From a bacterium (GTDB lineage Bacteria > Hydrothermota > Tepidihabitantia > Tepidihabitantales > Tepidihabitantaceae), in the NCBI GenBank assembly GCA_035505375.1, contig DATJQV010000081.1, forward strand, positions 30,596-94,595: a stretch of DNA of 64,000 bases, given 5' to 3'. A program made the translations under genes and the position numbers. The first letter of the stretch is position 1; every line of letters starts with the position of its first letter. Below are positions 1,446 to 43,573 of the stretch, piece after piece. The notes beneath the pieces were generated by a model. The model ran no database searches. It saw only the letters and a program-made list of their open reading frames with translations, and was not told where the DNA came from.

Positions 1446-1831
1446 GTCTCGTCCTCGTTCTGCGCTCTAGCATCTAGCTTCTGGCTTCTCGCTTCGTTCG
1501 ACCTACCGTCCTCAATCTTGCAGCTTGCATCTTGCCCCTTGCACTCTGCATCTCCGTTCTTCTTGCGAAGCGCCGCCTTCACGCTCACGCCAGGTATCGC
1601 CCCCAGCCTCCCGGTCATCGCGCCAATCTCGTCGTTCGAGCCATCAACTATGACTGCGATGACAGACAGATTCCTCTCTCGATAGGGAATGCCCATCCGG
1701 CCGACGAGAATCCGACCGTACTCACTCAATATCTGGTTCACCTTGGGCGCGGTATCAAGCCGGTTCTCGACGAAGACGGCGACAACGCCAAGGCGGTGTT
1801 CATGGATAGCTTCAGACTCATTCATGATCAA
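1442..1831 (-). CDS. TM1266-like putative iron-only hydrogenase system regulator (ACT/NikR-C-like small protein) with a low-complexity C-terminal tail
   Basis: ORF track 129 aa. The core HRLGVVAVFVENRLDTAPKVNQILSEYGRILVGRMGIPYRERNLSVIAVIVDGSNDEIGAMTGRLGAIPGVSVKAA matches my recollection of the TM1266 family that neighbours hydG. Its stop TGA overlaps the hydG ATG (ATGA at 1442-1445). The last ~40 codons cross word repeats. Confidence 0.7.
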   Translation of the reverse strand: MIMNESEAIHEHRLGVVAVFVENRLDTAPKVNQILSEYGRILVGRMGIPYRERNLSVIAVIVDGSNDEIGAMTGRLGAIPGVSVKAALRKKNGDAECKGQDASCKIEDGRSNEARSQKLDARAQNEDET

Positions 1832-2127: not shown

Positions 2128-2435
2128 TCGGGGTCGCGACGAAAACCGCGGTCCGAACCGCTCTGCAAATCGCCGTCAGAATCGCCGCGGCAGTCGCGGC
2201 GAGACTCAAACGGCGAATCACCGTGCACTCCGCCACGGAAACCGGGCCGAGAGTCGACTTCCGAGTGCCCTTGCGAGTCGCCATGGAAACCGCCTCCCGA
2301 ACCGCTCCGGGAACGGTTCCCAAGGCGATTCCCGACATGACCTTTTCAGCCGATACCGCGGCTTAACGCATAGTAGATTAACAACTTAGCTACAAATGAG
2401 CGGAAAATGGGTAGCGTCCCTATTTAGAGGACCGA
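2128..2435 (+). repeat. 12-nt phased degenerate array A (19 units, 2133-2360) plus AT-richer flank (2367-2435); inverted homolog of 51636-51995
   Basis: Units in exact register from 2133: gtcgcgacgaaa accgcggtccga accgctctgcaa atcgccgtcaga atcgccgcggca ... Consensus is RYCGCC-NNNN-GA. It is coextensive with a possible ORF 2049-2366 (ATG preceded by AAAGGA) of period-4 sequence x-Ala-x-x. All six frames are largely open here, so coding is unproven. Confidence 0.8.
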
Positions 2436-2917: not shown

Positions 2918-3027
2918 TAGCAGGCAATCAGCAGATTCTGCAGACTCCACAGATTCTGTTCTCTCGACAGGGGAAATTGGGCCATCTGCGTAATCTGCGC
3001 AATCTGCGGATACTTGTTGCCCTGGCG

Positions 3028-10385: not shown

Positions 10386-10458
10386 AAGACGGGAAAATGA
10401 GGGACACTCCCACGGAGCGCTTGCGTCCGACTCAGCGCGGTAACGTCCCTGTTTTCCC

Positions 10459-12247: not shown

Positions 12248-12368
12248 GCAAACCCGAAGCTCGAAACCCGAATGACGATTGAATGTCCGAATGACCAAAT
12301 GACGAAGGTCAGGTCTGACATTCGGGTTTCGGGTTTCAATCGTCATTCGGACTTCGGAATTCGTCATT
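12248..12368. repeat. Long imperfect inverted repeat built from tandem words (GAAACCCGAA / CCGAATGACG) between the uvrC start and the rtcB stop
   Basis: The 16-nt segment ccgaatgacgattgaa (about 12267-12283) is perfectly complementary to ttcaatcgtcattcgg (about 12333-12348). Flanking words repeat in both arms. A separate small palindrome cgcgcc-cta-ggcgcg lies at about 12369-12384. Confidence 0.6.
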
Positions 12369-12386: not shown

Positions 12387-13931
12387 TCATCCTTTGACCA
12401 CACCCAGCGGCTTCATGCGCGCCACCTTGCGGCAGATGCCTGCCCGTGTGCAGACGTCCACGACCCTGTCCACATCCTTGTAGGCGTCCGGCACTTCCTC
12501 ACGCAGCACCTCGCGGCTGGCGGCCATCACCATGATGCCCTTCGCCCTGAGCTCTTCGGCGACGTTGCGACGCTCGGTCTCCTTGAGCGCGCGGGTACGG
12601 GACCATACCCGGCCGGCGCCATGGCAGGCCGAGCCGAATGTGTCGGTCTCGGCTTTCTCGGTGCCCAGCAGCAGGTACGAACATGTACCCATATCCCCGG
12701 GAATCAACACCGGCTGGCCGAGATGGCGGTAGCGCGACGGCAGGGCGTGGCTGCCGGTCTGATTATGGCACTGGGTTCCGGAACCGGGCCTGGCCGGTCC
12801 GAACGCACGCGTGGCTCCCTTGCGGTGAACGCACAACCTGACGCAATCCTTGCCGACCGCGTGGGTCTCGAACTTGGCGATGTTGTGGGCGACGTCGTAG
12901 ACCTGGCCCATGCCCAGTCGCTCGAACGGAAGCCCGAGCACCTGGCCGAACGCCTCGCGTACCCAATGCGCGATCGCCTGTCGGTTCGCCCAGGCGTAGT
13001 TGGCCGCGCAGACCATCGCCCCGAAATAGCGTTTGCCCTCAGGCGACTCGATGGGCGCGCAGGCGAGCTGCCGGTCAACCAGCTCGATGCCGTACTTCTT
13101 CGAAACCGCGCCGAGCGTCTTCACGTTGTCGTCGCATATCTGGTACCCGAGCCCGCGCGAGCCGGTGTGGATCATTACCGTTATCTGGCCTTCGGCAATC
13201 CCGAGGTCTCGCGCTGCGCCGAGGTCGTAGACCTCGGCCACTTCCTGGATTTCGAGGAAATGGTTGCCCGCTCCGAGCGTGCCCAGTTGCGGCATCCCGC
13301 GTTCCAACGCGCGCTCCGACACTCCGGTCAGGTCGGCCCCGGCCATGGCTCCGTGCTCCTCGGTGAACTCGAGGTCCTCCTCCGTGCCGTAGCCCTTTTC
13401 GACCGCCCAGCGGGCACCCCGGGTCAGGACCTGTGCCACCTCGGTCTGCGAGATGCGGATCTTGCCCTTTGACCCGACGCCGGATGGCACGTTTTCGTAC
13501 ATCGCCCGGACCAGCTTCTCAAGTAGTGGACTGGTGCGGGACATGACCGAATCGTCCGACGATTTGGATCGTGTCCCAAGCCCGAGATCCTCTCGCGTCA
13601 GCTTCGTCCGGAGCATCCGCACGCCGCAATTGATGTCATAGCCCACGCCGCCGGGCGAAATGACGCCCTCGCTCGTCTCGAACGCGGCCACACCGCCGAT
13701 GGGAAAACCGTAGCCCCAGTGGATGTCAGGCATCGCCATAGACTGCCCAACGATCCCGGGCAGGGTCGCGACGTTCGCCACCTGCTCCGGCGCCTGGTCC
13801 TGCTTGATGTCCTCGAGCAGAGAGGTATCCGAGTAGATGATGCCGTCCACGCGCATCTTCGGATTGTAGCTCTTCGGAATCCGCAGCCGGGTATCGTCAA
13901 TCCGCTCTAACGGTCCGTTCCAGGTGGGCAT
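12387..13931 (-). CDS. rtcB: RNA-splicing ligase RtcB (3'-phosphate/5'-hydroxy ligase) carrying an in-frame repeat-element insertion
   Basis: ...GYDINCGVRMLRT...VPSGVGSKG...HTGSRGLGYQI...HRKGATRA...GQPVLIPGDMGT...CHGAGR. The start is trimmed to the ATG at 13931 (MPTWNGPLERIDD...). Confidence 0.9.
   Translation of the reverse strand: MPTWNGPLERIDDTRLRIPKSYNPKMRVDGIIYSDTSLLEDIKQDQAPEQVANVATLPGIVGQSMAMPDIHWGYGFPIGGVAAFETSEGVISPGGVGYDINCGVRMLRTKLTREDLGLGTRSKSSDDSVMSRTSPLLEKLVRAMYENVPSGVGSKGKIRISQTEVAQVLTRGARWAVEKGYGTEEDLEFTEEHGAMAGADLTGVSERALERGMPQLGTLGAGNHFLEIQEVAEVYDLGAARDLGIAEGQITVMIHTGSRGLGYQICDDNVKTLGAVSKKYGIELVDRQLACAPIESPEGKRYFGAMVCAANYAWANRQAIAHWVREAFGQVLGLPFERLGMGQVYDVAHNIAKFETHAVGKDCVRLCVHRKGATRAFGPARPGSGTQCHNQTGSHALPSRYRHLGQPVLIPGDMGTCSYLLLGTEKAETDTFGSACHGAGRVWSRTRALKETERRNVAEELRAKGIMVMAASREVLREEVPDAYKDVDRVVDVCTRAGICRKVARMKPLGVVKG
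13536..13586 (+). repeat. GGGACA hairpin element, copy inside the rtcB coding sequence
   Basis: gcgggacatgacc-gaatcgtccgacgattt-ggatcgtgtcccaagcccgag. Same architecture as the copies at 30536-30588 (+) and 19566-19616 (-). Translated in the rtcB frame as ...GLGTRSKSSDDSVMSRT... Confidence 0.75.
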
Positions 13932-19501: not shown

Positions 19502-19565
19502 GCGGCTCCTAGATTCCGGCCGGAGAATCTGCGTTATCTGCGTAATCTGCGGTTGTGCCTCTCGG

Positions 19566-19616
19566 TCGGGCTTGGGACACGATCCCAATTGCGGACAATT
19601 GGGTCATGTCCCCGCC
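19566..19616 (-). repeat. GGGACA hairpin element, intergenic copy
   Basis: The reverse complement reads gcggggacatgacc-caattgtccgcaattg-ggatcgtgtcccaagcccgacc. Confidence 0.75.
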
Positions 19617-19827
19617 CGGAACCACGGCATGAGCCTGCTTGTGTCTGTCTGTGTTCATCGGTGTTATCAGTAGTTGCTCTGAGAGACCCTTCGACTCCGC
19701 TTCGTTCCACTCAGGGTGACACTTCGTGTCGTCTGCGGCATCCGCGTAATCACCGGGTACTGCCCGGACCGGGACCGGGAGGGCTTGACTTTTGCTCTTG
19801 TCCGAATATCCTACACTGTCTGATTAT

Positions 19828-20460
19828 ATGCACAGAGCACCCGGTTACATTATCTTTGTACTGGTTCTGGCGGGAACAGCCCTCGCTCCACCGGTGCCGA
19901 TTCCCCTGTCTCAGCAGCCCGTGCCGACCGGGACTTCGGCCCGTACCGTGCTGATATTCCTTCCCCAGCAGTTGTTCTCGGGCGAGGAGTTTGAGCCGGC
20001 GCTGGCGCAGCTTACGCGGGCCGGATTGCAGACCCGGATTGCCGCAATGAACACGGGCATAGCTTCGAGCCTGGACCAGGTGCTGGTGAACACCGACATC
20101 ACCCTGCGTGACGCAGGCGTGTCGGATTATGCCGGGCTCGTGCTCGTCGGCGGGTCCGGGGCCGCGCTCTACTGGGACGATTCGCTGGTTCAGGCCAAGT
20201 GCCGCGAGTTCGCGGATAATGGCAAGGTCGTTGCCGCCATCGGCATCGCGCCGGTGACGCTGGCCCGCGCTGGAGTGCTGAAGGGCCACACGGCGGCCGT
20301 GTTTCACGACCGTGACGCCATCAACTGGTTGAAGCAGGGCGGTGCGAGGTTCAGCTTCAAGAACCTGGTGATCGACCGCAATATCATCACCGCGGCCACT
20401 GACGACCAGGCGCGCGCCTTCGGCAAAGCCGTGGCCTCGGCGGTGCTTGAGACCAGGTGA
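19828..20460 (+). CDS. DJ-1/PfpI-fold (class I glutamine amidotransferase-like) protein, apparently lacking the nucleophile Cys; N-terminal signal/anchor
   Basis: ...YAGLVLVGGSGAALYWDD...GKVVAAIGIAPVTLARAGVLKGHTAAVFHD...NIITAATDD. The canonical A-I-C-H/A-G-P elbow reads AIGIAP. The start is set at the ATG at 19828 (MHRAPGYIIFVLVLAGTALA). Confidence 0.7.
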   Translation: MHRAPGYIIFVLVLAGTALAPPVPIPLSQQPVPTGTSARTVLIFLPQQLFSGEEFEPALAQLTRAGLQTRIAAMNTGIASSLDQVLVNTDITLRDAGVSDYAGLVLVGGSGAALYWDDSLVQAKCREFADNGKVVAAIGIAPVTLARAGVLKGHTAAVFHDRDAINWLKQGGARFSFKNLVIDRNIITAATDDQARAFGKAVASAVLETR

Positions 20461-21881: not shown

Positions 21882-22587
21882 GGCAAGTACGAACTCCGAA
21901 CGCCGAACTCCGAAGTCCGGGGCCCCATCTTCGGCGGTTGGCGTTCGGCATTCGCCCTTTCTGATTGTGCTCTCTTCGCCGTCCGGCGCGGGCAAGACGT
22001 CAATCAGCCGCGAGGTGGAACGTCGCGACCCGGACGTCTTCTACTCGGTATCGGCCACGACTCGGCCGAAGCGGGATGGCGAAGTCCACGGCCGCAGCTA
22101 CTTCTTCTATTCGAAGAAGCAGTTCCAGCGGCTGGAAGCGAGAGGTGGCATGATCGAGAGTGCCAGTGTCTACGACCACCGGTATGGCACTCCGAAGGCG
22201 CCGGTCCTGCGCAATTTCCACGAAGGCCGCGACGTGGTTGCCGACCTCGATATCCAGGGGATGCGCTCGTGCCGGAAGGCGCTGCCCGGCATGGTCAGCA
22301 TCTTCATCACTGCTCCCGACTCGGCCGAGCTCGGCCGGCGGCTCCGCAACCGCGGCACCGATTCGACCGAGGCCGTGAAGCGGCGGGAGGCCGACCGCGA
22401 GATGGAGCTGGCCGCAATCCCCGAGTTCGATTATCTGGTGGTCAACGACCGGCTGCAGCAGGCGGTCGACGACGTGATGGCGATTATCCGGGCCGAGAGG
22501 CTGCGGACATCGCGAATGAGTCCGACCGCACCCCAATCCCTAACCCCTAACTCCCAGTCCCTAGATCGAAGGAGGCCACGGAAATGA
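21871..22587 (+). CDS. gmk: Guanylate kinase with repeat-encoded N- and C-terminal extensions
   Basis: ...FLIVLSSPSGAGKTSISREV...YSVSATTRPKRDGEVHGRSYFF.... The ATG at 21871 overlaps the yicC end. The stop overlaps the next ATG (ATGA at 22584-22587). Confidence 0.9.
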   Translation: MSNRASTNSERRTPKSGAPSSAVGVRHSPFLIVLSSPSGAGKTSISREVERRDPDVFYSVSATTRPKRDGEVHGRSYFFYSKKQFQRLEARGGMIESASVYDHRYGTPKAPVLRNFHEGRDVVADLDIQGMRSCRKALPGMVSIFITAPDSAELGRRLRNRGTDSTEAVKRREADREMELAAIPEFDYLVVNDRLQQAVDDVMAIIRAERLRTSRMSPTAPQSLTPNSQSLDRRRPRK

Positions 22588-29110: not shown

Positions 29111-30475
29111 TCATGCGACCTCCCACGCGACTTCGTTGTGTACCCATCGGTTCCGGTAGTAGCCGACGGCGAGAATCCCTGCCTCGACGACGATGGAAAC
29201 ACCGATGCCCAGCCAGACGCCGATGACGCCGAGCCCCATCGCTCGCGCGAAGAGCAGCGCGGCCGGAATCTTGATTCCCCAGTTGGAGACGAGCGCGGCA
29301 ACCATCGGGTTACGGGTTGCCCCAGCCCCACGCTGGGCGCTGTCCCAGGCGGTCGACAAACCGAGTACGATGAGCATCGGCGCGAGCACGCGCAGGTACG
29401 CAGTGCCGTAGCGCACGACGTCCGGGTCGCCGTTGAACACACGCACGAGCAAGGGGGCCGACAGAAACAGCACGGGCATCACCGCAAGCTGAAGCAGAGA
29501 GGCGATCCAGAGGACACGCTGACTGACCTTCAGCGCCAGCTCCGGCTTCTGCTGTCCGAGGCTCTGGCCCACGAGCGTCTGCCCGGCCGAGGCCAGACCG
29601 CCGAGATAGATATACATGAGCTGCAGCAGTCTGAGCCCGATGCCGAATGCCGCGGTTGCGGCCGTGCCGAACCGGGTCACGATGCCGAACAATAGCATGC
29701 CGGTGAGCGGCCGGGTGATGGCCTGCAGTCCGGCAGGAATCCCGATATTGAGAATCGTCTTGACCGCCGCGGGCCTGACCGGCCCGCGCAGAGTGAGAAG
29801 CTCGCGCCGGTGCAGTAGTATCGCCATCGCCACCAGCCCGCCGGATTGAGACAGAACGGTTGCCAGCGCCGCTCCGGCTGCGCCCAGCCGCGGCAGGCCC
29901 AGCCAGCCGAAGATGAGCAACGGGTCGAGCGCGAAGTTGAGGACGTTGGTCGCGAGGGTGATGAACATCGGCGTCCGCGTGTCTCCGAGCGCCTGGAACC
30001 CGGAATAGAGCACCATCCCGGCGAAGAAACCGGGCAGCACTGCCAGCAGTATCGCGAGGAAACCCCGGCCCGCGGCCACGACGTCGGGCGCCGCTCCGAA
30101 CCAACCCAGGATGCGGCCGGAGAGAATCACGCCGAACACGGCCAGCGGAATCGAACCGAGCACCGCCAGCATGAGCCCGTGCCGCAGGCTCTCCCGCACA
30201 CCGGCTCTGCTGTCCGCGCCGGCCGCGCGCGATGCGGTCGCGAGCACGCCGACCATCACCACCTGCCCCAGCGAATAGAGCACGCTGAGCACCGAGCCGC
30301 CCAGCGCCACCGCGGCCACGGTCGCCGCGCCCAGCCGGCCGACCCAGAACATGTCGACAACGGTCAGCATCGTGTACAGCAGTTGCCCGGTCATCACCGG
30401 CCAGGCAACCTGCCATATCGCGTGGCCCAGCCTGCCGGACAGGTCAACCGTGCTCAGACGTGTCTCTTCAGACAT
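29111..30475 (-). CDS. MATE family efflux transporter
   Basis: MSEETRLSTVDLSGRLGHAIWQVAWPVMTGQLLYTMLTVVDMFWVGRLG... with 12-TM-like hydrophobic periodicity. The start is trimmed to the ATG at 30475, because the upstream 35 ORF codons translate the GGGACA element and GCAGATTACGCAGAT words. Confidence 0.85.
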   Translation of the reverse strand: MSEETRLSTVDLSGRLGHAIWQVAWPVMTGQLLYTMLTVVDMFWVGRLGAATVAAVALGGSVLSVLYSLGQVVMVGVLATASRAAGADSRAGVRESLRHGLMLAVLGSIPLAVFGVILSGRILGWFGAAPDVVAAGRGFLAILLAVLPGFFAGMVLYSGFQALGDTRTPMFITLATNVLNFALDPLLIFGWLGLPRLGAAGAALATVLSQSGGLVAMAILLHRRELLTLRGPVRPAAVKTILNIGIPAGLQAITRPLTGMLLFGIVTRFGTAATAAFGIGLRLLQLMYIYLGGLASAGQTLVGQSLGQQKPELALKVSQRVLWIASLLQLAVMPVLFLSAPLLVRVFNGDPDVVRYGTAYLRVLAPMLIVLGLSTAWDSAQRGAGATRNPMVAALVSNWGIKIPAALLFARAMGLGVIGVWLGIGVSIVVEAGILAVGYYRNRWVHNEVAWEVA

Positions 30476-30535
30476 GAAGCGAGATACTACCGAAGAGAAC
30501 TGCGGGCGCAACCGCAGATTACGCAGATGACGCGG

Positions 30536-30588
30536 GCGGGGACATGACCGAATCCGCCGAGGATTCGGATCGTGTCCCAAGCCCGAAC
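30536..30588 (+). repeat. GGGACA hairpin element, copy upstream of the MATE gene
   Basis: gcggggacatgacc-gaatccgccgaggattc-ggatcgtgtcccaagcccgaacgg. Confidence 0.75.
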
Positions 30589-30849
30589 GGAAGGAGACGA
30601 CCGCTGATGTCGCAGATTCAGGATTCGGACAGAGGAGAAATCAGAATCGAGGACGCGGAGGGAACGTTCACAGATTACGCCGATTCCGCCGACTAGAGAC
30701 GCGGACGGCGAGAACCGCAGACGACGCGCAGCGTCGCCCTGAGCGAGTATGACGAGTCGAAGGGTCTCGCCCGGAAAGGACTACCACGGATGTCGCAGGT
30801 TCCTAACCAGAACCCCTGAACCCCAGAACCCGAACGCTGGAGCGCGGGC

Positions 30850-31098
30850 TCAGGACGAACCGAAGAGCCGGAGTTCGAGTTCGCCGCGGTCGATTCCGAG
30901 ATGATGCGCCACGCTTGCCAGGATGTACTCAAGCGTGCCCACGCGAAGCGACTCGTGGGCCGGTATCGTGACGTGGTGCTCGCCACGCTCGTGCGTCGTC
31001 AGGCGCATGTGGCTGCCGACGCAATGCGTCACCTGGTAGCCGAAATGCCCGAGCAGGTGCGCCAGGTGCTGGCCCGAGACATCGCGCGGCAGCTTCAC
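30850..31098 (-). CDS. hicA: HicA-like toxin (YcfA/HicA mRNA interferase fold)
   Basis: From the in-frame GTG at 31098: VKLPRDVSGQHLAHLLGHFGYQVTHCVGSHMRLTTHERGEHHVTIPAHESLRVGTLEYILASVAHHLGI.... This shows the G-S-H motif and size typical of HicA. GTGA overlap with the upstream gene. Confidence 0.65.
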   Translation of the reverse strand: MKLPRDVSGQHLAHLLGHFGYQVTHCVGSHMRLTTHERGEHHVTIPAHESLRVGTLEYILASVAHHLGIDRGELELRLFGSS

Positions 31099-31307
31099 GG
31101 CGTGATTGTCTCTTCGCGCACGACCTGCACGAACCGCAGCTTGATCGCGTCCGGCTTGGCGCACTCCGCGGCGTGGCACACCGCGGCCTCGCGCACGTTG
31201 GTGTAGAGTTCCTCCAGCGTATCGGCTTCGGTCACGATGCACCCGCACGACGACCGGGCAACAAACCCGCCGTCCCGCTCCTCGACCATGAACTCAACCG
31301 TTGCCAT
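31095..31307 (-). CDS. hicB: HicB-like antitoxin (UPF0150 fold)
   Basis: 70 aa. MATVEFMVEERDGGFVARSSCGCIVTEADTLEELYTNVREAAVCH... follows the HicB N-domain pattern (..E.DGG(Y/F)VA......C.T.G.TLEE....(I/V).EA...). TATAAT lies about 35 nt upstream (plus-strand attata at 31344-31349). Confidence 0.6.
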   Translation of the reverse strand: MATVEFMVEERDGGFVARSSCGCIVTEADTLEELYTNVREAAVCHAAECAKPDAIKLRFVQVVREETITP

Positions 31308-31470
31308 TAATCCTGCCTTTCAGGTACTGATGAGGCACATACCATTATACTCGACCACAACAGAGCCCGCCAGATAGGACAACCGCAGATTACGCAGGTC
31401 AGCCGCCACCTGGCGCTCAAGTTCGGACACTGGAAACTGGTAACTGGGAACTGGAAACTCGCAGCCAAAG

Positions 31471-32810: not shown

Positions 32811-33041
32811 ATGTCGTGCCCAAGTGTGGCAAGGCCCGCGTCCCGCGACCTTATTTCCTCGCCCGTCCGCAACACCGCCCGACATGAGCAGGCGTCTCCG
32901 CAATTCCTTGACCGACTCGACCAGAACCGCGAGGTCTTCCTCTCCGGCGACTACAAAGAAGAACAACTCCGCCTTGAGTTCCTCAACCCCTTCTTCACCG
33001 GGCTTGGCTGGGACATGTGTGAGAAAGGAGGCTCATCGTGA
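32811..33041 (+). pseudogene. 5' remnant of an Eco57I-type (type IIG) restriction-modification / N6-DNA methylase gene, truncated after about 60 codons
   Basis: Translation ...FLDRLDQNREVFLSGDYKEEQLRLEFLNPFFTGLGWDM matches the characteristic N-terminus (..SGKYNE.QLR.EF(I/L)NPFF.ALGWD(V/M)) of this enzyme family as I recall it. Homology stops at GWDM, where the GGAGG and GTG start of the next gene begin. Confidence 0.6.
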
Positions 33042-34240
33042 GCGTTTTCGGCAAGCCGCTTGACGTGGTCGCCAGCACAGACATCGAGGCCCTGAAGTCC
33101 ACCGGAGCCCAAGAGTCCCAGTATCTAGACTACAAGAGAGACGCGTATGGGAGCGACACGAAAGAACTGCTGAGAGACATCACTTCGTTCGCAAACGCCT
33201 ACGGCGGCGAGGTCATTGTTGGGGTCGAAGAAGACGGGGACGGACGGCCGCAGAGCATCCCTGGTCTCAATGAGTACAAGTTGGAGTGCACTCGCTACGA
33301 ACAGAGCGCAATGACCGGCATTGATCCGAGAATCCCCGGACTCAAGGTCTACGCTGTCCCATTCGCCGACCCAGCGAAAGGGGTGATCATTGTCAGCGTT
33401 CCACGGAGCAGCCGTGCTCCGCACATGGTTACCGTTGGCGGCGAGGACAGATTCTGGAGGCGTCACGGCAGGCACAAGAGCAGAATGACGACAGCGGACA
33501 TCGGCGAGTCGTTCAGGTTCGGACGTGAGTACCTGAAACTCTCGGAAGACTACCTGGAGGGTGCCAAGAGAGCAGCCCTGAACTCAGGGATCTCCGAGCC
33601 AAGGCTGGTTCTTGGCGCGCTGCCGGCATTGCAGCCCGAGCGACCCATCGGACCCGGCGAGGCATGGGCCAGAGAAATCCTGGCGAGGCCGCACGGCAAG
33701 CAGAATCGCGCGTCGCTGTTGCCCGAGATGGACCCCCAGCACGAGGAGATACGACCCACGTTGAGAGGCTTGGTCAGATTGTGGCGGGCTGAGCCTCAAC
33801 AACCGTCCCTTGCGTTACACAGGAATGGATACCTAGAGCTCCGCAACAGGTGCATCACGGGCATCGGCGGTGTTCGCGAAGACGAGATCGAGTTTGGGGG
33901 CTTCGCATCGCTCTGTGTCGATTTCTTCCGGCTCGCGTCTCAAGTCTACCATAAGCTAGGGTATGAAGGCGAAGTCTTCGCCTTCGGTGCCATTGCGAAG
34001 ACGGAAGGACTGAGACTACGCGACATGCCGGTCGCCCTCACCGGCGGTTCCGACCATCGCTCCCGCGACGCCGACCCGCGGGGATGTCCGGAAGTCCCCA
34101 ACCTAGTCGTAGAACCGTGGTCGTACTCGACGAGTGAGACACCTGAGTCACAAGCTCAACGGTTCGCGGACGTGGTATACAACGCATTCGGGCACGAGCG
34201 CGCACCCTCGATTAAGGACAGCCAATATGGTCACGTCTGA
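33038..34240 (+). CDS. AlbA_2 / Schlafen-like (divergent AAA, putative nucleic-acid-binding) domain protein with an unknown ~260-aa C-terminal region
   Basis: 400 aa. GGAGG lies 7 nt upstream of the GTG. N-terminus ...DIEALKSTGAQESQYLDYKRDAYGSDTKELLRDITSFANAYGGEVIVGVEEDGDGRP... fits the E..LE(F/Y)K......(I/L)..(I/L).AFAN..GG.(I/L).(I/V)GV.D.G pattern of AlbA_2. Confidence 0.65.
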   Translation: MSVFGKPLDVVASTDIEALKSTGAQESQYLDYKRDAYGSDTKELLRDITSFANAYGGEVIVGVEEDGDGRPQSIPGLNEYKLECTRYEQSAMTGIDPRIPGLKVYAVPFADPAKGVIIVSVPRSSRAPHMVTVGGEDRFWRRHGRHKSRMTTADIGESFRFGREYLKLSEDYLEGAKRAALNSGISEPRLVLGALPALQPERPIGPGEAWAREILARPHGKQNRASLLPEMDPQHEEIRPTLRGLVRLWRAEPQQPSLALHRNGYLELRNRCITGIGGVREDEIEFGGFASLCVDFFRLASQVYHKLGYEGEVFAFGAIAKTEGLRLRDMPVALTGGSDHRSRDADPRGCPEVPNLVVEPWSYSTSETPESQAQRFADVVYNAFGHERAPSIKDSQYGHV

Positions 34241-42349: not shown

Positions 42350-43573
42350 GTGAAGAGAGAAAGCAAGACCGGGCTACACCCCTCTCAATTCATCATCCGC
42401 TCTTTCCCCAAGACCGCTGCCCTGTTTGTGCTCGTCGTGCTGCTGCTTGCGCCCGGTTTGCGAGCGTCGGGACATGCCCCGGAAAACGGGGGACAGTCCC
42501 TGGAAGTCGCACAGGGCCCTGCGAAGGGACAGTCCCCGTTTTCGAGTCGCCAATCGCCAGTCGCCGTTCGCGAGGCCGACTTCTACCGCAAGCTGGGCAA
42601 TAACCTGGTCGCGTGCGACCTCTGCCCGCGCCGGTGTGTCATCGCCCCGGGCCAACGTGGATTCTGCCGCGCCCGGGAAAACCGCGACGGCAAGCTCTAC
42701 TCGGTAGTCTACGGCCACCCCTGCTCACTCAACAAGGAGCCGATTGAGAAGGCTCCGTTCTTCCACTTCCTGCCCGGCAGCGAGCGTATTACGCTCGCCA
42801 CCGCCGGCTGCAACCAGACGTGCAAGTACTGTCAGAACTGGGAGATCTCGCAAGCCCGCATGGAAGATCTGCAGAACTACAATCTTTCGCCCTCGGACGT
42901 CGTCGCCCTTGCGGTCGAAGAGAAAGTGCCGATTATCTGCTTCACCTACTCCGAGCCGACCGTGTTCTACGAGTACATGATAGACATCGCCCGCCTGGCC
43001 CGGGCCAAGGGCATCAGGACCGCGGTGGTGACCGGCGGCTACATCAACCCCGAGCCGCTCAAGCAGCTCTGCTCGCTGGTCGATGCTATCAAGATTGACC
43101 TGAAGGGCTTCACTCCCGAGTTCTACCAGAGCGTCTGCGGTTCGACACTCGAGCCAGTGCTCGAAGCGTGCAAGACTGTTGCGCAGACCCAGACTCATCT
43201 GGAGCTTGTGAACCTCGTGGTCCCGGCCCTGAATGACGACACGGCGACAATCAGGAAGATGTGCCGGTGGATCCGTGATAGCCTCGGCGACACGATCCCG
43301 GTCCATTTCACCCGGTTCTATCCCCAGTACCGACTCCAGAACTCGCCGGCCACGCCTATCGCCACACTCGAACGGACCATCGCCATCGCCAGGTCGGAAG
43401 GCCTCAAGTTCACCTACATCGGCAACGTGCCCGGCAACGCATCGGAGAACACCTATTGCCCCAAGTGCGGCAAGACTGTAATCCAGCGCAGCGGCTACAC
43501 GATAGTAGATAACAAGCTGAAGGACGGCAACTGCCCGTTCTGCGGAACTCATATCCCCGGCGTATGGCAGTAA
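42350..43573 (+). CDS. AmmeMemoRadiSam-type radical SAM enzyme with an N-terminal hydrophobic extension
   Basis: ...FYRKLGNNLVACDLCPRRCVIAPGQRGFCRARENRDGKLYSVVYG...ATAGCNQTCKYCQNWEIS...CPKCGKTV...CPFCG. The first ~70 aa include AALFVLVVLLLAPGL. Confidence 0.75.
   Translation: MKRESKTGLHPSQFIIRSFPKTAALFVLVVLLLAPGLRASGHAPENGGQSLEVAQGPAKGQSPFSSRQSPVAVREADFYRKLGNNLVACDLCPRRCVIAPGQRGFCRARENRDGKLYSVVYGHPCSLNKEPIEKAPFFHFLPGSERITLATAGCNQTCKYCQNWEISQARMEDLQNYNLSPSDVVALAVEEKVPIICFTYSEPTVFYEYMIDIARLARAKGIRTAVVTGGYINPEPLKQLCSLVDAIKIDLKGFTPEFYQSVCGSTLEPVLEACKTVAQTQTHLELVNLVVPALNDDTATIRKMCRWIRDSLGDTIPVHFTRFYPQYRLQNSPATPIATLERTIAIARSEGLKFTYIGNVPGNASENTYCPKCGKTVIQRSGYTIVDNKLKDGNCPFCGTHIPGVWQ

Follow-up and report, generated by a model that had tools for sequence, protein, structure and literature searches.

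A hairpin of about 50 nucleotides occurs three times, with the same outer sequence and a different inner stem each time, in a 64,000-nucleotide stretch of DNA (contig DATJQV010000081.1 of assembly GCA_035505375.1, positions 30,596 to 94,595; hereafter the window) from a bacterium of the WOR-3 lineage in a wetland metagenome. Does this element act as RNA or as DNA, and how did its copies reach their places? The original prediction, made from the letters of the window, left RNA and single-stranded DNA side by side. The evidence points to the single-stranded DNA of a mobile element and speaks against a functional RNA. The hairpin is very probably selfish repeat DNA, and comparison across genomes makes it probable that it is a non-autonomous element resembling the repetitive extragenic palindromes (REPs), which a Y1 transposase of the TIRYT type recognises in the form of a folded single strand.

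A constrained foot and a covarying tip

The exact pattern GGGACATGACC-N(16-17)-GGATCGTGTCCC is present in the window at 13538-13577 (+), 19574-19612 (-) and 30539-30578 (+) and in none of 100 shuffles of the window, which bears out the predicted common shell. The 19-nt right-hand shell, GGATCGTGTCCCAAGCCCG, is the same in all three copies, and the likeness between them is confined to the ~50-nt element and ends at its borders. Copy 1 (30533-30585, + strand) reads CGGGC-G-GGGACATGACC-GAATCC GCCGA GGATTC-GGATCGTGTCCC-AA-GCCCG; copy 2 (13537-13584, +), which lies inside the rtcB gene and antisense to it, reads C-GGGACATGACC-GAATCGT CCG ACGATTT-GGATCGTGTCCC-AAGCCCG; copy 3 (19567-19618, -) reads CGGGC-G-GGGACATGACC-CAATTG TCCG CAATTG-GGATCGTGTCCC-AA-GCCCG. 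They score 56.5, 57.9 and 60.4 bits, respectively, against a model of the hairpin. The places originally given for them were right, with ends that were off by 1-3 nt.

An outer stem of 6 bp, GGGACA...TGTCCC, had been proposed; it does pair, but the real shell pairing is larger, with 11 bp between GGGACATGACC and GGATCGTGTCCC, among them a single T.G pair, and with a single A, that of GGATCG, bulged out. As claimed, the inner segment of each copy is self-complementary, and the shell stem stacked on the inner stem gives a hairpin of 17-18 bp, to which two of the three copies add an outer CGGGC/GCCCG stem. RNA folding of the written versus the complementary strand yielded -41.9 vs -35.1, -31.6 vs -23.0 and -38.9 vs -34.0 kcal/mol (z = -5.3 to -6.2 for the written strand). 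DNA parameters gave -15 to -23.4 kcal/mol for the written strand and the same ranking of strands, with z between -3.6 and -6.2 over RNA and DNA folds together; the complementary strand folds more weakly in every window copy. A search of the window with the hairpin model for diverged copies returned only unrelated GGGAC...GTCCC palindromes at 10392-10458 and 42481-42545. These palindromic repeats (e.g. aaaacGGGGACTGTCCC ... GGGACTGTCCCCcgttttc) form a separate family that matches the hairpin model weakly.

An exact-shell scan of one genome per species found the 23-nt shell in more than 120 stretches, a lower bound, all of them from metagenome-assembled genomes (MAGs). The matches listed cover at least ten phyla and include Armatimonadota, Aminicenantes/Acidobacteriota, Desulfobacterota, Planctomycetota, WOR-3, Bipolaricaulota, Bacillota, Alphaproteobacteria, Myxococcota, Chloroflexota and Actinomycetes. 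Among these matches, up to ~14 loci come from one MAG, and several loci per genome are common. From the stretches we extracted 137 copies with 121 distinct inner segments (numbers prefixed with L, such as L104, are locus labels of this analysis). From the shell inwards, 113 of the 137 copies continue with 6-10 contiguous pairs, compared with at least six pairs in 11 of 2,740 shuffled controls (0.4%). The further copies are self-complementary as well, and they are not fragments of a longer gene, two points on which the original prediction had staked itself.

In an alignment of 132 distinct copies, inner pairs 1-6 are paired in 92-98% and pair 7 in 84% of the copies that have it, and each inner position shows 3-6 standard pair types. 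Double-sided changes number 465 vs 199 in shuffles, with none of 500 shuffles as high, and sliding the partner by one column lowers pairing from 86% to 40-51%. This covariation indicates that the inner stem is selected for pairing rather than for sequence, in line with the original claim of selection on structure; that claim does not extend to the shell, which is strictly constrained in sequence too. The tip has a consensus, [C/G][A/G]A[T/A]T[C/T], and is thus not free sequence. Non-exact copies detected with the model are single-base variants of the same core, and at L013 (1980-2040) a G-C to A-T change within the shell is compensated. By construction, every exact-core copy has the imperfection formed by the T.G pair and the bulge, and most of the variants detected with the model have it too; a wholly symmetric variant was seen once (L011, 61-125). 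Mismatches on the written strand are of the G.T rather than the A.C type in a ratio of 36:14. This excess, the conserved T.G pair and the bulge jointly show that the folded form is one specific strand.

Copies also occur as inverted doublets (L012, L111) and as tandem arrays and iterated half-sites (L012, L003, L047). Neighbouring copies have the same orientation in 18 cases and the opposite one in seven (p = 0.04), a weak hint in the direction expected for a strand-specific process. At the loci with iterated half-sites (L012, 6490-6680; L003, 2900-3010; L047, 5190-5425), one tip is surrounded by nested left arms (GGGGACATGACC, three times) and right arms (GGATCGTGTCCCC, five times), and tandem arrays with a 58-nt period occur in the same set. 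In the flanks of L282 and L207, GGGGACA/TGTCCCC modules stutter likewise beside transposase genes. Such iteration suggests slippage or re-cleavage at the foot. The exact core is further found in nine IMG/VR stretches (L283-L291) on eight contigs classed as viral, two of which carry at least two copies; such contigs may represent prophage regions, host DNA assigned to the wrong bin, or carriers by which the hairpin spreads horizontally.

An insertion in rtcB and copies within genes

The rtcB gene (12387-13931, - strand), host of copy 2, encodes an RNA 3'-phosphate ligase of 514 aa that matches the Pyrococcus horikoshii RtcB structure with an E-value of 1e-160, and alignment to the P. horikoshii protein leaves a 17-residue gap precisely at the hairpin. 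The three closest WOR-3 relatives encode RtcB proteins that are 86-90% identical to that of the window and 497 aa long (498 codons with the stop). All three lack the 48-nt element at this place and carry the hairpin elsewhere in their genomes. Their empty site reads ...GAGGATCT/GAGTCAGCC... (...GTG/AG..., the slash marking the junction), and the filled site of the window reads GAGGATCT followed by an insert that begins with CGGGCTTGGGACACGATCC and ends with GGTCATGTCCCG, and then CACCAGTCC. The insert is in frame and free of stops and adds 16 residues (GLGTRSKSSDDSVMSR); comparison with the three empty sites shows no target-site duplication. By this comparison, the rtcB copy is a recent insertion. 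In contigs from the DNA run of the wetland sample the hairpin element is abundant, and the empty-site rtcB allele was not found among them.

A bulge-helix-bulge or XBP1-like mini-intron in rtcB is disfavoured, given an insert that is in frame and stop-free, the bias towards lengths of 48 or 51 nt described below, and copies in many unrelated genes in both orientations. The rtcB gene has a second lineage-specific insert of ~13 residues (12735-12790, - strand; ...PARPGSGTQCHNQTGSH...), which includes a 12-nt perfect palindrome, GGTTCCGGAACC. The three closest relatives have this insert as well, but the Pyrococcus structure and a WOR-3 RtcB of 76% identity lack it.

Across the family, the flanks fall into two classes. 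The WOR-3 type, which includes the window copies, has the form GGCGC-core-AAGCC, and the other has an outer stem of 6-8 bp, e.g. ggattccg/cggaatcc (ttccg-core-cggaa). The fraction of WOR-3-type copies within stop-free frames of 150 codons or more is about that of random positions (0.92 vs 0.90), whereas the other class is depleted in open frames (0.65 vs 0.91 at random). The inner length of WOR-3-type copies is 17 or 20 nt (2 mod 3) in 26 of 38, which gives elements of 48 or 51 nt (p = 1.5e-5, calculated on copies that are not independent), and the shell, read from its sequence, is stop-free in five of six reading frames. The WOR-3 form is unusually compatible with coding sequence in both length and absence of stops. 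Host genes confirmed with Pfam, rtcB among them, encode a class-III aminotransferase (two copies in one gene), a radical SAM protein, pyruvate:ferredoxin oxidoreductase, two amidohydrolases, a KdpD-like sensor, an Eco57I-type methylase, a poly(A) polymerase-family protein, C25 peptidases and type IX secretion system (T9SS) sorting domains.

In the T9SS C-terminal sorting domain, the hairpin occupies one junction in unrelated proteins of four MAGs (...VLxLP/RDMT...DRVPR/xxLLDxxGRKV...; L013 3242, L040 263, L078 2731 and L088 2202, all sense). In other proteins it sits in the opposite orientation at nearly the same codon (...LSP/LGTRS...VMSR/AALLD...; L017 1109, L073 115 and L048 4060, antisense). 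These loop copies come from several WOR-3-type MAGs and are read in more than one frame. Within the domains the core is 100% conserved and the flanks are ~57% identical, a difference that is not proof of selection, as the copies were collected by their exact core. The placement could reflect an insertion hot spot, spread together with the domain, or the only permissive loop. A further in-gene copy, in a Desulfarculaceae MAG (L004, 4554-4604), has the exact core and a tip stem of 6 bp and lies within a metF-like gene (...TYGAGGGSRDRTRDTILRLRDLNGLRVMSHLTG...), presumably with no net change in length relative to E. coli MetF. With ~0.4 exact-core matches expected over the whole collection, this one may have arisen by chance; alternatively, an insertion may have been offset by a deletion.

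A candidate transposase and rival explanations

Clustering of the open reading frames (ORFs) around 120 loci yielded no common mobility gene, only T9SS-tail proteins, ABC transporters, kinases and similar, and no other transposase family recurs near the copies. A candidate enzyme surfaced through a weak tblastn match in L104, a locus of a Magnetovibrio MAG; the query, used solely as a probe, was what we take to be the sequence of E. coli YafM. The L104 ORF (1622-2260) encodes a 212-aa Y1/HUH protein (Pfam Y1_Tnp, 42 bits, cut-off 23) with an HVH motif and the tyrosine motif YVELNPVRA. Its best NCBIfam match is the REP-associated tyrosine transposase (RAYT; E = 5e-19, 68.5 bits, below the 80-bit equivalog cut-off). 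L104 holds five hairpins within 1.6 kb. Two of them bracket the gene in inverted orientation, at 1523-1562 (-), 60 nt upstream, and at 2252-2291 (+), over the stop codon; a shortened second copy of the gene lies upstream. Inverted flanking of this kind defines a REP-transposase unit. Such bracketing by hairpins was seen in L104 and not in the window or the WOR-3 loci; at L030 and L204, an exact hairpin lies just upstream of a homologous transposase gene.

Homologues with 55-74% identity are found in a dozen or more phyla, and nearly all are flanked by arms of the form ttccgGGGGACAC(C/A)ATACTTAATT ... AATTAAGTAT(G/T)GTGTCCCCggaa, often with iterated GGGGACA or TGTCCCC half-sites. The ~60 homologous loci displayed carry ...GGGGACAC(C/A)ATACTTAATT upstream and AATTAAGTAT(G/T)GTGTCCCC downstream. 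RAYT-like genes with inverted arms that share GGGGWSAS have been described as TIRYT genes and TIRtrons (PMC3733652, PMC6006769). TIRYT has been assigned to TnpA-REP subclass 2.1, beside whose genes no REP-like sequences were found (PMC6006769, Quentin et al. 2018). The foot of the hairpin fits GGGGWSAS on both sides, with the left arm as GGGGACAT and the right arm, read backwards, as GGGGACACG (reverse complement (G/T)GGGACACG), and the outer stems ggattccg/cggaatcc of many copies equal the flanks of the transposase-gene arms. At three WOR-3 transposase loci (L261/L293, 2640-2800; L294; L295), the right-hand arm is missing downstream, and caagc-type word repeats (caagccacaagcttcaagccgcaagctgcaagc) stand in its place.

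Gene and hairpin occur together in the lineage of the window. The genomes UBA2258, JAFGRF, CAZSUX, CAZVCQ and CAZAKP, the closest hairpin-carrying relatives of the window organism, contain orthologous transposases whose identity to that of UBA2258 is 77-100%; the UBA2258 gene (L261, 2001-2633) shares a contig with rtcB. Both are present in the same genome in these five WOR-3-type MAGs and in 2-3 alphaproteobacterial MAGs. Judging from the relatives, the window genome presumably encodes the transposase as well.

These observations suggest the following mechanism. Where DNA is exposed as a single strand, for example when a passing replication fork leaves the lagging-strand template unpaired, the written strand would fold into a hairpin of ~18 bp. 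The transposase would read the lower hairpin, namely the foot GGGGACA/TGTCCCC, the T.G pair, the bulged A in GGATCG and the AAGC tail or outer stem. On the best-supported reading, this conserved part of the stem, bulge and wobble included, would be the module for recognition and cleavage. The catalytic tyrosine would then cut and rejoin a single strand, and the element would enter another single-stranded site without duplicating the target. The upper stem would not be read base by base, pairing being sufficient, and covariation would arise because copies that keep their complementarity stay mobilisable. We infer the binding and cleavage of the hairpin by this enzyme, and the dependence on single strands or forks, from the features above.

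Several observations weigh against this assignment. There is no transposase gene in the 64-kb window, and ~150 of 160 transposase loci have no hairpin within 1.5-2 kb. The gene arms and the hairpin have in common only the GGGGACA foot and the outer flank, TGACC/GGATCG not being shared, and the outer context of the WOR-3 hairpin (GGCGC...AAGCC) is unlike the flank of the WOR-3 transposase arms (gatttcg...). The GTAG tag of classical REPs is absent. Evidence of mobility comes from a single insertion compared with its empty site, the exact-match search itself imposes part of the shell's invariance, and the orientation of copies relative to GC skew has no significant bias (78 vs 59, p = 0.12). To our knowledge, TIRYT proteins have no published biochemistry.

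How far do other explanations account for the same data? A structured motif on which selection acts as RNA (for example a cis-regulatory element, a small RNA, an mRNA stabiliser or a terminator) would fit the strong predicted RNA hairpins (z about -6), the covariation of the inner stem and the wobbles of the G.U type favoured on one strand. PMC3733652 also describes classical REPs as acting secondarily on mRNA stability and termination. We nevertheless regard such a motif as quite improbable. The window has no match in Rfam 15 at gathering thresholds, and a relaxed scan of six copy-rich loci gave only chance-level miRNA matches. By a crude gene caller, 23 copies in open frames are sense and 27 antisense, and intergenic copies are co- and counter-oriented in 21 vs 18 cases, that is, without a preferred orientation. 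All three window copies are antisense to neighbouring genes by the gene calls of the source contig, the better-folding strand being the non-transcribed one at rtcB and opposite to the genes on either side at copies 1 and 3. The stem is not followed by a T-run, in-frame copies occur in many unrelated genes in both orientations, and the rtcB copy is a recent insertion. The complementarity of the tip could also be mechanical, one arm being copied from the other by hairpin-primed or template-switch synthesis with no selection on pairing. Inner stems are nearly always perfectly paired, and the iterated half-sites and nested palindromes at L012 (6490-6680) and L003 (2900-3010) show that slippage or copying acts. 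Yet arm-to-arm copying would erase the T.G pair and the bulged A, both of which are kept; tips hold wobble pairs and occasional mismatches, both with a strand bias, and the perfectly symmetric variant appears just once. This makes arm copying highly improbable as the source of the pairing.

The element might instead resemble a miniature inverted-repeat transposable element (MITE) moved by some other enzyme, or spread by recombination or gene conversion, its likeness to TIRYT arms and its adjacency to the genes being secondary, for example through hairpins inserting near or into such loci. The scarcity of hairpins at most transposase loci, the sharing of just a 7-8-nt foot with the gene's arms, and the same T9SS junction in unrelated proteins, which suggests domain-linked spread or a hot spot, lend themselves to this explanation. 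On the other side stand the lack of any other recurring transposase family, the absent target duplication, which speaks against a DDE enzyme, the L104 gene between inverted copies, as in REP-transposase units, and the joint presence of gene and hairpin in the lineage of the window. On balance, an origin of this kind seems doubtful, and a REP-like element served by a TIRYT-type enzyme is the more probable reading.

Other identities were considered and rejected. An intrinsic terminator does not fit a hairpin followed by AAGCCCG(A) rather than T residues and oriented at random relative to genes. Integron attC sites have R''/R' core sites (RYYYAAC...GTTRRRY) that are absent from the shell, and the copies are single, dispersed and inside genes. 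A MITE of a DDE transposon is at odds with the rtcB site, where the target is not duplicated, and with the vicinity of the copies, where DDE transposases do not recur. A full-text literature search with four shell strings returned chance primer matches only; this hairpin family is found in neither Rfam nor the searchable literature.

Surroundings, known systems and significance

Copies 1 and 3 are intergenic. Copy 1 lies 58 nt upstream of the start of a murJ-like gene (29111-30475, - strand, start at 30475) and downstream of a hicA-like gene (30850-31098, -), antisense to both. The latter belongs to a hicA/hicB-like toxin-antitoxin pair (30850-31307, -), which, like an SLFN/AlbA_2-domain gene (~33038-34240, +), is situated just beyond the hairpin, upstream of the murJ-like gene. 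Copy 3 precedes a DJ-1/PfpI gene (19828-20460, +) by 210 nt and is likewise antisense.

Short word repeats mark the same intergenic regions. GCAGATTACGCAGAT words adjoin copy 1 (30514-30528) and copy 3 (19527-19550), one hairpin being abutted at its 5' side and one at its 3' side, and there are none at the rtcB copy. The original observation that two of the three copies sit beside word repeats holds in the window but is not a general property of the hairpin family. The words occur elsewhere in the window too (2931-3007, 31385-31399; 11 matches vs 1.1 expected), and nine-base-period repeats (GCAGATTAC GCAGAT...) occupy four intergenic places (2931-3007, 19527-19550, 30514-30528, 30603-30684, 31385-31399). 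At L032 and L113, similar words (cacaatctgtggaatctgt) follow the hairpins. Two long imperfect inverted repeats of short words, both intergenic, were also noted, one directly downstream of rtcB (12254-12363; CGAAGCTCGAAACCCGAATGACGATTGAA / TTCAATCGTCATTCGGACTTCGGAATTCG) and one at 21885-21959 (AAGTACGAACTCCGAACGCCGAACTCCGAAG / its complement).

Elements of this kind are already known, as palindromes partnered by Y1 transposases, as repeat families of TIRtron terminal inverted repeats (TIRs) and as intragenic REPs. The closest likeness described here is to TIRYT/TIRtron loci (Di Nocera, De Gregorio and Rocco 2013, PMC3733652), which correspond to TnpA-REP subclass 2.1: GGGGWSAS inverted arms surround a Y1/HUH RAYT-like gene, and the motif recurs in the foot of the hairpin. 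TIR arm families are moderately abundant, often form dimers or clusters and include repeats inside genes (PMC3733652). In contrast to those arms, the present element is a compact hairpin of 48-70 nt with its own 23-nt core (TGACC/GGATCG with the bulged A), which is absent from most gene arms and is the same across at least ten phyla. Subclass 2.1 proteins also have a characteristic C-terminal helix-turn-helix, whereas Pfam reports no helix-turn-helix family, at E-values up to 5, in the C-terminal extension of ~90 aa here.

The hairpin resembles the REP/REPIN-RAYT systems of Enterobacteria and Pseudomonas in several ways. It is a short, imperfect palindrome that contains a bulge; its many copies are dispersed and also form inverted doublets and clusters; a Y1 transposase gene, present once, lies between inverted copies (here in L104); target duplication is lacking; and the substrate is presumed to be single-stranded DNA. 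In PMC8266576, E. coli TnpA-REP is described as requiring an imperfect palindrome broken by a bulge, which parallels the conserved bulged lower stem. The differences are that the flank profiles have neither a GTAG nor a CGTC tag, that classical REPs are lineage-specific whereas the hairpin core is identical across phyla, and that the WOR-3 form is not extragenic, its frequency in long open frames matching that of random positions. The sub-terminal hairpins of IS200/IS605 elements (IS608, ISDra2) are likewise imperfect, confined to one strand and served by a Y1 transposase, with insertion without duplication and activity tied to single-stranded DNA. They stand, however, at both ends of a full element, with cleavage sites set by guide base-pairing, whereas here the hairpin is the whole element. 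Rickettsia palindromic elements, which are ~100-150 bp long and restricted to Rickettsia, offer a parallel as palindromic selfish DNA that lies in frame in protein genes and is tolerated as an extra peptide. Their sequence is unrelated to that of the hairpin, and we know of no transposase identified for them.

What goes beyond the descriptions in the papers cited is the identical core that spans phyla, the covarying tip and the in-frame life of the element in WOR-3 genes. It is conceivable, though unlikely, that a single universal pair of transposase and 23-nt-core hairpin has spread horizontally through a dozen or more phyla, mostly of uncultivated anaerobes, and that the coding-compatible WOR-3 form is maintained in genes, serving the host or the element. 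Such spread would contrast with the vertically inherited, lineage-specific REPIN-RAYT systems, and in-gene hairpins could then be points of recombination or diversification, for example in the tails of secreted proteins.

The hairpin offers a compact candidate substrate for the widespread TIRYT-type transposases, and the enzyme can be tested directly. Its many copies amount to natural mutational data on that candidate substrate, in which foot, bulge and wobble do not vary and the tip is free to vary but stays paired. The family also cautions against naming such covarying hairpins novel RNAs. In the annotation of proteins from MAGs, it may explain inserts of 16-17 residues such as (G)LGTRS...VMSR or RDMT...DRVP that have so far lacked an explanation. 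REP-like elements can have an identical core across phyla, and in WOR-3 bacteria they routinely lie in frame inside genes, including rtcB.

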